Assembly: GCF_013122565.1 (NCBI RefSeq)
Contig: NZ_CP053258.1
Reading direction: 5' to 3' (one strand)
DNA length: 64,000 bases
From: Escherichia coli
Lineage (GTDB): Bacteria > Pseudomonadota > Gammaproteobacteria > Enterobacterales > Enterobacteriaceae
Shown here in pieces: positions 58,624 through 59,250 of the stretch (position 1 is its first letter; every line of letters begins with the position of its first letter). The position numbers and the translations under genes were made by a program. The notes under the pieces are model-generated. The model searched no databases. It had not been told where the DNA came from and saw nothing but the letters and a program-made list of their open reading frames with translations.

Positions 58624-58974
58624 TTATTCCACCACCGCCTGCAAGCGTAATAACGCCTCTTCCACCACCTCATCCGCAGCCAGACCAATACGCTTTGCCA
58701 GCCGGGCGTGTAGATCCATCATCCGCACCTGATTCACCAGCACCACGCCGTGCACATCGCCTTCTTCGCAATGTAAAGGAACGCTAAATCCGGCATAACG
58801 GGCAAAATTTCCGCCCTGCGTAATGGGGGCCAGCAGCGTCATTCCCAGTTGATTAAAGGCTTGAACGGAGAGCACAAGCGCAGGTCGACCAGCACCTTGC
58901 TGTTCATGGCCGCTTGCTGGATCAAAGCCAACCAGCACAATGTCTCCCCGTTCAAATTCACTTTTCTTTACCAT
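58624..58974 (-). CDS. chpB: MazF-family endoribonuclease toxin ChpB
   Basis: 116-aa translation MVKKSEFERGDIVLVGFDPASGHEQ... Confidence 0.9.
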   Translation of the reverse strand: MVKKSEFERGDIVLVGFDPASGHEQQGAGRPALVLSVQAFNQLGMTLLAPITQGGNFARYAGFSVPLHCEEGDVHGVVLVNQVRMMDLHARLAKRIGLAADEVVEEALLRLQAVVE

Positions 58975-59219
58975 ATTTCGTCACCCGCAGGGGTAGATTT
59001 ACCCCAGACATCCTGCTCGCTAAGTTCCGCGGCGTTCATGTCACACTGTGCCAGCAGTTCATCAAGCGAGTAGCGCCTGGAGATGGGTGTCAGAATCAGT
59101 TGATTGTTGCTCACTTGCGCCTCCACGCTCTGCCCCGGCCGTAAGTTAAGTTCTTTCATCACAACATTAGGAATGACCATACCTGAACTGTTCCCCCATC
59201 TTTTTATGGTAATACGCAT
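58968..59219 (-). CDS. chpS: Antitoxin ChpS (AbrB/MazE fold)
   Basis: Translation MRITIKRWGNSSGMVIPNVVMKELNL...; overlaps chpB start. Confidence 0.9.
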   Translation of the reverse strand: MRITIKRWGNSSGMVIPNVVMKELNLRPGQSVEAQVSNNQLILTPISRRYSLDELLAQCDMNAAELSEQDVWGKSTPAGDEIW

Positions 59220-59233
59220 CTGCACCTCCTTAA

Positions 59234-59250
59234 GTTATACAAAGTATAAC
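59234..59250. promoter_or_regulatory. Inverted repeat (possible ChpS operator) upstream of chpS
   Basis: gttatac-aaa-gtataac perfect inverted repeat read directly. Confidence 0.4.

Follow-up and report, generated by a model that had tools for sequence, protein, structure and literature searches.

A candidate ChpS operator with parD-like half-sites upstream of the chpSB toxin-antitoxin operon of Escherichia coli

Introduction

As a rule, type II toxin-antitoxin systems repress their own transcription through a palindromic operator. The chromosomal chpSB module of E. coli has been known since 1993, and Zhang and colleagues reportedly showed in 2005, with the K-12 proteins, that ChpB is an RNA-cleaving enzyme and that ChpS neutralizes it. 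In the searchable literature, we found no report of a ChpS-DNA binding experiment or of a chpS promoter, operator or transcription start. The palindrome string described below appears in that literature in the parD paper and a pESI preprint only, and the chpS sequence nowhere.

The closest described system is the plasmid-borne parD (kis-kid) of R1, equivalent to pemIK of R100, which like chpSB places the antitoxin gene first. Hydroxyl-radical footprinting established that Kis binds an 18-bp palindrome, GTTATATTTAAATATAAC, in parD region I, the left half of which overlaps the promoter -10; a weaker, pseudo-symmetric site, region II (GTTATATTTTTATTAAAC), lies upstream of region I (Monti et al, 2007; PMC1865072). 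Within the plasmid pemI/kis upstream sequence (...gatGTTATATTTAAATATAACttttatGGAGGtgaagaATG), GTTATATTTAAATATAAC stands 17 nt before the start codon. A second related system, mazEF (chpA), has the PemK/MazF toxin and AbrB/MazE antitoxin families in common with chpSB. MazE contacts DNA bases through Arg16 (PMC4333400).

Here we analyze the chpSB locus in a 64-kb stretch of E. coli DNA (64,000 nt; hereafter the window), and compare the palindrome upstream of chpS with the operators of these two systems.

Results

The chpS-chpB operon and its relatives

The window contains a chromosomal toxin-antitoxin operon of type II, confirmed as E. coli chpS-chpB, with the following genes in and beside it:

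58017-58547, plus strand: ppa, convergent with chpB, whose stop is 76 nt away
58624-58974, minus strand: chpB, 116 aa, endoribonuclease toxin of the PemK/MazF family
58968-59219, minus strand: chpS, 83 aa, AbrB/MazE-type antitoxin, with its ATG at 59219
59430-59771, minus strand: ytfP, the neighbor on the chpS side

The gene order tamB-ytfP-chpS-chpB-ppa-ytfQ is that of K-12, and ytfR is also in the neighborhood. The end of chpS shares 7 nt (58968-58974) with the beginning of chpB, an arrangement suggestive of translational coupling. In Pfam, ChpB matches PemK_toxin (PF02452; 6.4e-25) and ChpS matches MazE_antitoxin (PF04014; 1.5e-11). Both proteins match their NCBIfam equivalog models along their full length: ChpB scores 226.9 bits against NF007320 (cut-off 129; residues 1-116 of 116) and ChpS 193.8 bits against NF008463 (cut-off 101; residues 1-83 of 83), confirming the chpSB identity proposed in a preliminary description of this DNA. 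Against the MazF and MazE equivalog models, the two proteins score far below the cut-offs. Solved structures exist for the relatives Kid, MazF and MazE, and the nearest to ChpB is Kid (1M1F; 1.3e-20), with E. coli MazF reaching only about 5e-9. ChpS is 37% identical to PemI. Because ChpB is nearest to Kid and the candidate operator is Kis-like, the pair is closer to kis-kid/pemIK than to mazEF, and is best called a pem/parD homolog within the MazF family. The earlier label "MazEF-paralogous" needs correcting in this respect, as ChpB is nearer to Kid/PemK than to MazF.

We compared the window with E. coli K-12 MG1655, to which it aligns in reverse orientation at 97-98% identity with equal gene order. 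The K-12 chpSB genes (chpBI-chpBK, b4224-b4225) occupy the same locus and share the neighbors tamB, ytfP, ppa and ytfQ, and the system is, as the preliminary description had it, already known. Across the chpS-chpB coding DNA, 588 of 596 nt are identical, leaving three amino-acid differences in ChpS and one in ChpB. With just one to three such differences from the K-12 proteins, ChpB encoded here would be expected to act as an RNase and ChpS to neutralize it.

A perfect palindrome precedes chpS

The 210-nt spacer between ytfP and chpS contains these features:

59225-59229, minus strand: chpS Shine-Dalgarno sequence GGAGG, 5 nt from the ATG, as read from the sequence
59233-59251, no strand: palindrome AGTTATAC-TTT-GTATAACT, putative ChpS operator and counterpart of parD region I
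59220-59264, minus strand: extended imperfect inverted repeat, a hairpin over the ribosome-binding site if transcribed whole
59243-59248, minus strand: TATACT, putative -10 inside the left arm of the palindrome, matching the consensus at 5 of 6 positions
59265-59271, minus strand: expected -35 zone, ACGTTTC in Escherichia, a poor match to TTGACA
59392-59419, minus strand: intrinsic terminator of ytfP from a terminator scan, with its stem at 59400-59419 followed by a T-run

The preliminary description had noted a perfect inverted repeat, GTTATAC-AAA-GTATAAC, which is present at 59234-59250; the arms match perfectly over 8 nt (AGTTATAC/GTATAACT, 59233-59251) rather than 7 nt. Read on the minus strand, GTTATAC-TTT-GTATAAC is a 17-bp site ending 14 nt before the chpS ATG. 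An imperfect extension brings the arms to 21 nt with 76% complementarity (59220-59240 / 59244-59264). Perfect repeats of this size are not rare in the window, which holds seven of the 7+3+7 form and 61 with 7-nt arms and spacers of 0-6, or about one per kb. When sequence was shuffled, such a repeat arose in 6% of cases for the 210-nt ytfP-chpS spacer and in 1% for the 40 nt beside the ribosome-binding site. By itself, the palindrome would be weak evidence for an operator, and it is the comparison with related loci that makes the case strong. A search of 58500-59500 against Rfam returned nothing relevant, the lone match being a sub-threshold S15-leader inside ppa.

The palindrome closely resembles parD region I and is homologous to this footprinted Kis operator. 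The sequence upstream of chpS (...gtgaGTTATACTTTGTATAACttaaGGAGGtgcagATG) agrees with it in the outer half-sites and in their placement: both sites consist of GTTATA/TATAAC half-sites located 5' of the ribosome-binding site and 14-17 nt before the start codon, and both have a -10-like TATAYT in the left half (TATACT in chpS, TATATT in parD). The two differ in spacing, with 17 bp (N5) for the ChpS site and 18 bp (N6) for parD region I. They also differ in that the extended -10 TG of pem is missing in chpS, and in that chpSB is chromosomal and syntenic across genera whereas parD is plasmid-borne. A scan that does recover pem region II found no second site with at most two mismatches in the 210-nt spacer, whether in the window, in K-12, in Trabulsiella or in Kluyvera. 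One candidate for a parD-like region II, GATATGCAGGGGTAAAAC, has three mismatches and is absent from K-12, and we judged it to be a chance match. The mazE operator is unrelated to the chpS site, being an alternating palindrome with repeats based on GTATCTACA.

The palindrome is nearly invariant in E. coli and conserved across genera

Comparison with the K-12 chpSB promoter, which the preliminary description had proposed as a check, revealed no difference in the palindrome, in the ribosome-binding site or anywhere in the 48 nt before the chpS start. Over the whole ytfP-chpS spacer, 185 of 213 aligned positions are identical, with scattered substitutions and none in the palindrome. At 59283-59290, the window reads CAGATATG and K-12 CAAATGCG. 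An imperfect inverted repeat with 15-nt arms (59282-59296 / 59313-59327) arises from window-specific substitutions and is absent from K-12 and other Escherichia; the same CAGATATG substitutions also create a weak GTTATA-like match with three mismatches that is not conserved. Both this repeat (59282-59327) and the weak match are probably due to chance.

We next searched E. coli genomes with a 41-nt query running across the palindrome and the ribosome-binding site, with 12 nt of flank. Of 3090 genomes with a match, 3077 (99.6%) carry it without a single difference. Over the region as a whole (query 58548-59429), identity to the window is just 95-99% in most E. coli genomes.

For a wider comparison, we scanned one genome per GTDB species and obtained 75 loci encoding relatives of ChpS/PemI. 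In Trabulsiella odontotermitis and Kluyvera, the module lies in the same tamB-ytfP-chpS-chpB-ppa-ytfQ context, with identities of 67-69% for ChpS, 68-72% for ChpB and 95-97% for Ppa. When the ytfP-chpS spacers of these genera (about 211 nt each) are aligned, just two islands are kept, the ytfP terminator hairpin and GAGTTATACTTTGT(A/C)TAACT. The palindrome is also kept in Leminorella while its flanks diverge, and the GGAGG before chpS is kept in the orthologs of the cross-genus spacer alignment. Judged from these alignments, the palindrome is a classical phylogenetic footprint.

Half-site spacing follows antitoxin type

We then scanned the related loci for GTTATA-N5/6-TATAAC, allowing up to two mismatches and requiring the site to end 12-20 nt ahead of the start codon. 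Such a site is present in 36 non-duplicate relatives. Among 1977 background 60-nt stretches of the same loci, 0.4% have a match with at most two mismatches and none with at most one; the chpS site of the window matches both half-sites with no mismatch. Spacing divides with antitoxin type: antitoxins of the ChpS type (K-x-W/F-G-N-S; xGNS) have N5 and a 17-bp site in 8 of 8 non-duplicate loci, and those of the PemI/Kis type (K-x-V-G-G-S; VGGS) have N6 and an 18-bp site in 28 loci, a number that overstates their independence, as many are near-identical copies of a mobile module.

Relatives with a MazE-like WGNSAAVRLP stretch show a third pattern. In the 60 nt upstream of these antitoxin genes (loci L012, L014 and L026), there are TCTACAATGTA-type repeats and no GTTATA motif, and the repeats resemble those of the K-12 mazE promoter, GTATCTACAATGTAGAT...GTATCTACAT (L083 1340-1410). 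The WGNSAAVRLP stretch includes an Arg matching MazE Arg16; ChpS retains the KRWGNS loop of MazE and has Val at the place of this DNA-contacting residue. These correspondences suggest that the residue at the Arg16 position helps to set operator specificity. Overall, differences in the DNA-binding domain of the antitoxin go together with differences in the upstream motif, as expected of a cognate operator.

Two groups of relatives have additional repeats. The widespread pESI-type enterobacterial pemI-like modules (L023-L060, L004; MYTTRLKKVGGS...) carry a second conserved inverted repeat, CACAATGAATCTGATGAATAATTGTG, about 45-75 nt before the antitoxin start and upstream of the GTTATATTAAAATATAAT operator; it is absent from R100 pem and from chpS. 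In Paraglaciecola (L022 1420-1500), a ChpS-type antitoxin is preceded by two variant sites, GTTATAACAATGTGGTAAC and GTTATAACATTGTTGCTAC, spaced about 20 nt apart, which may represent a two-site operator in a distant relative.

Promoter and transcription unit

The ytfP terminator separates ytfP from the chpSB transcription unit. Within that unit, we infer the -10 (TATACT), and with it the position of the transcription start, by analogy with the left half of parD region I. This assignment is supported by -35-like hexamers found 16 nt upstream of the TATACT position in three genera: ATGACA in Trabulsiella, ATGACT in Kluyvera and TTGAAA in Leminorella. In all Escherichia, the -35 zone is degenerate (ACGTTT/CGTTTC) and is not accompanied by a TG extended -10, and the Escherichia promoter may be weak. 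A consensus scan for sigma-70-like promoters on the minus strand of 58500-59500 called none, and the searchable parts of genome-wide start-site and promoter supplements contained no entry for chpS, chpB, b4224 or a coordinate near 44484xx. The real chpS start site could be elsewhere.

chpSB is absent from many E. coli genomes

We found that 3097 of 5426 complete E. coli genomes (about 57%) contain at least 80% of an 882-nt query spanning 58548-59429 of the window. The preliminary description had placed the module at its expected core location next to ppa; the module does lie at its K-12 place with ppa adjoining, but it is missing from about 43% of complete genomes and is, in the pan-genome sense, a non-core element of E. 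coli. In strains that lack chpSB, such as MS20674, about 150 nt stand in place of the module (window 58622-59268; L001 2285-2662), and neither chpS nor the palindrome is left. The replacement includes a 128-nt chpB fragment that is 73% identical to codons 7-48 of any Escherichia allele. As this divergence is as large as that between genera, the chpB pseudogene haplotype looks old. The junction between shared flank and module-specific DNA falls at 59269/59268, inside the -35 zone.

The window differs from K-12 at several other places. A 709-nt insertion between nrdG and cybC (47144-47853) encodes an antitoxin of the RelB family (47429-47671; Pfam RelB, 6e-16) together with a toxin of the ParE/RelE fold (47149-47442; Pfam ParE_toxin, 1.4e-14). 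Presumably, it is what the preliminary description called the relBE-like insertion and put next to chpSB; the distance between the two is about 11 kb. The 65-kb K-12 segment compared (NC_000913.3 4440000-4505000) contains nothing that corresponds to positions 1-15571, which start just past leuX, a tRNA-Leu(CAA) gene at 15619-15703, where K-12 has a different cryptic prophage. The leuX tRNA gene is a classical integration site for genomic islands. The window also lacks about 5 kb of the K-12 idn cluster (idnK to idnR), and has just about 90 nt between ahr and yjgR (16918-17009). Finally, 26263-27696 in the yjgN/yjgM region did not align to K-12 by megablast, and contains a divergent or replaced allele.

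Discussion

The palindrome upstream of chpS is, taken as a whole, best explained as the ChpS operator, through which ChpS very probably represses its own promoter. The preliminary description had called it a plausible autoregulatory operator, and the match to parD region I together with the conservation across genera lends this reading considerable further weight. This assignment extends the parD paradigm in a straightforward and well-supported way, the differences being 1 bp of spacing and the lack of a second site.

We propose a model in which ChpB, a sequence-specific endoribonuclease, would be the effector of the system, and ChpS would be a dimeric antitoxin of the AbrB/MazE fold that neutralizes ChpB with its C-terminal tail and binds DNA with its N-terminal domain. 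A ChpS dimer on the 17-bp palindrome would cover the -10 and the start region, keep RNA polymerase out and so repress chpSB. By analogy with Kis-Kid and MazE-MazF, the ChpS-ChpB complex would probably bind more tightly than ChpS by itself, with ChpB as a co-repressor. Loss of the labile antitoxin would then de-repress the operon.

We weighed this model against three other explanations. The repeat could act mainly as RNA: a stem-loop formed either by the chpS leader or by ytfP read-through transcripts would hide the Shine-Dalgarno sequence and set translation or stability. The 53-nt segment 59214-59266 does fold well, at -19.8 kcal/mol (z-score -3.6; none of 200 shuffles as good), with a stem reaching into GGAGG. 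Arms lengthened to 12 nt in Kluyvera and Trabulsiella likewise reach the ribosome-binding site, and the two genera differ by a paired A:T to T:A change. These extended arms do not discriminate between the two readings, as a symmetric protein site and an RNA hairpin give the same paired changes, and the extension is missing in Leminorella and in remoter ChpS-type loci. The inner arms, on the other hand, are constrained in sequence (GTTATA) beyond what pairing would demand, across relatives of 31-45% identity, and the arms of PemI-type sites are all A/T and would form weak RNA stems. The homologous parD site is a footprinted protein site whose left half is the -10 and so is untranscribed. In E. 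coli, the hairpin would be relevant only if transcription starts upstream of 59264, and a strong ytfP terminator stands upstream. We regard a mainly RNA-level role as quite improbable; the hairpin is possibly a secondary effect on ytfP read-through transcripts.

A target for some other factor, either an unrelated host regulator or a recombination or insertion site at the edge of a mobile toxin-antitoxin cassette, would fit with the boundary between module and shared flank (59268/59269) lying just 18 nt from the palindrome. It does not fit with the lack of a matching repeat at the far end of the module, nor with a motif that travels with antitoxin type in unrelated contexts and whose spacing follows the antitoxin N-terminus, and we give this explanation very little credence. 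Slightly less credible still is a functionless chance feature of AT-rich intergenic DNA. The frequency of perfect 7-nt-arm repeats in the window and in shuffled spacers would allow for one, but chance does not account for invariance in 99.6% of the E. coli genomes that carry the site, for its retention across genera where the flanks diverge, or for half-sites at an equal position in dozens of homologous modules against the 0.4% background. Conservation and the family-wide site data together effectively refute it.

Since chpSB is known and autorepression is usual among such systems, the discovery value of an operator here is small. The useful residue is a precise, testable assignment of the ChpS operator, which we did not find in the searchable literature, and a rule for the family in which the half-site is shared and the spacing differs, with 17 bp for ChpS-type and 18 bp for PemI/Kis-type sites. 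The common GTTATA half-site and the spacing difference of only 1 bp might allow cross-regulation between ChpS and PemI, and the spacing rule offers a prediction of whether a chromosomal and a plasmid module engage in cross-talk. An IncF pemIK plasmid entering a chpSB-positive E. coli might meet such cross-regulation, or the shift in spacing might have evolved as insulation. Combined with the degenerate -35 and the absence of the module from about 43% of genomes, this reading, to which we give a low probability, would cast chpSB as a decaying, plasmid-interacting module of an "anti-addiction"-like kind rather than a stress-response system.
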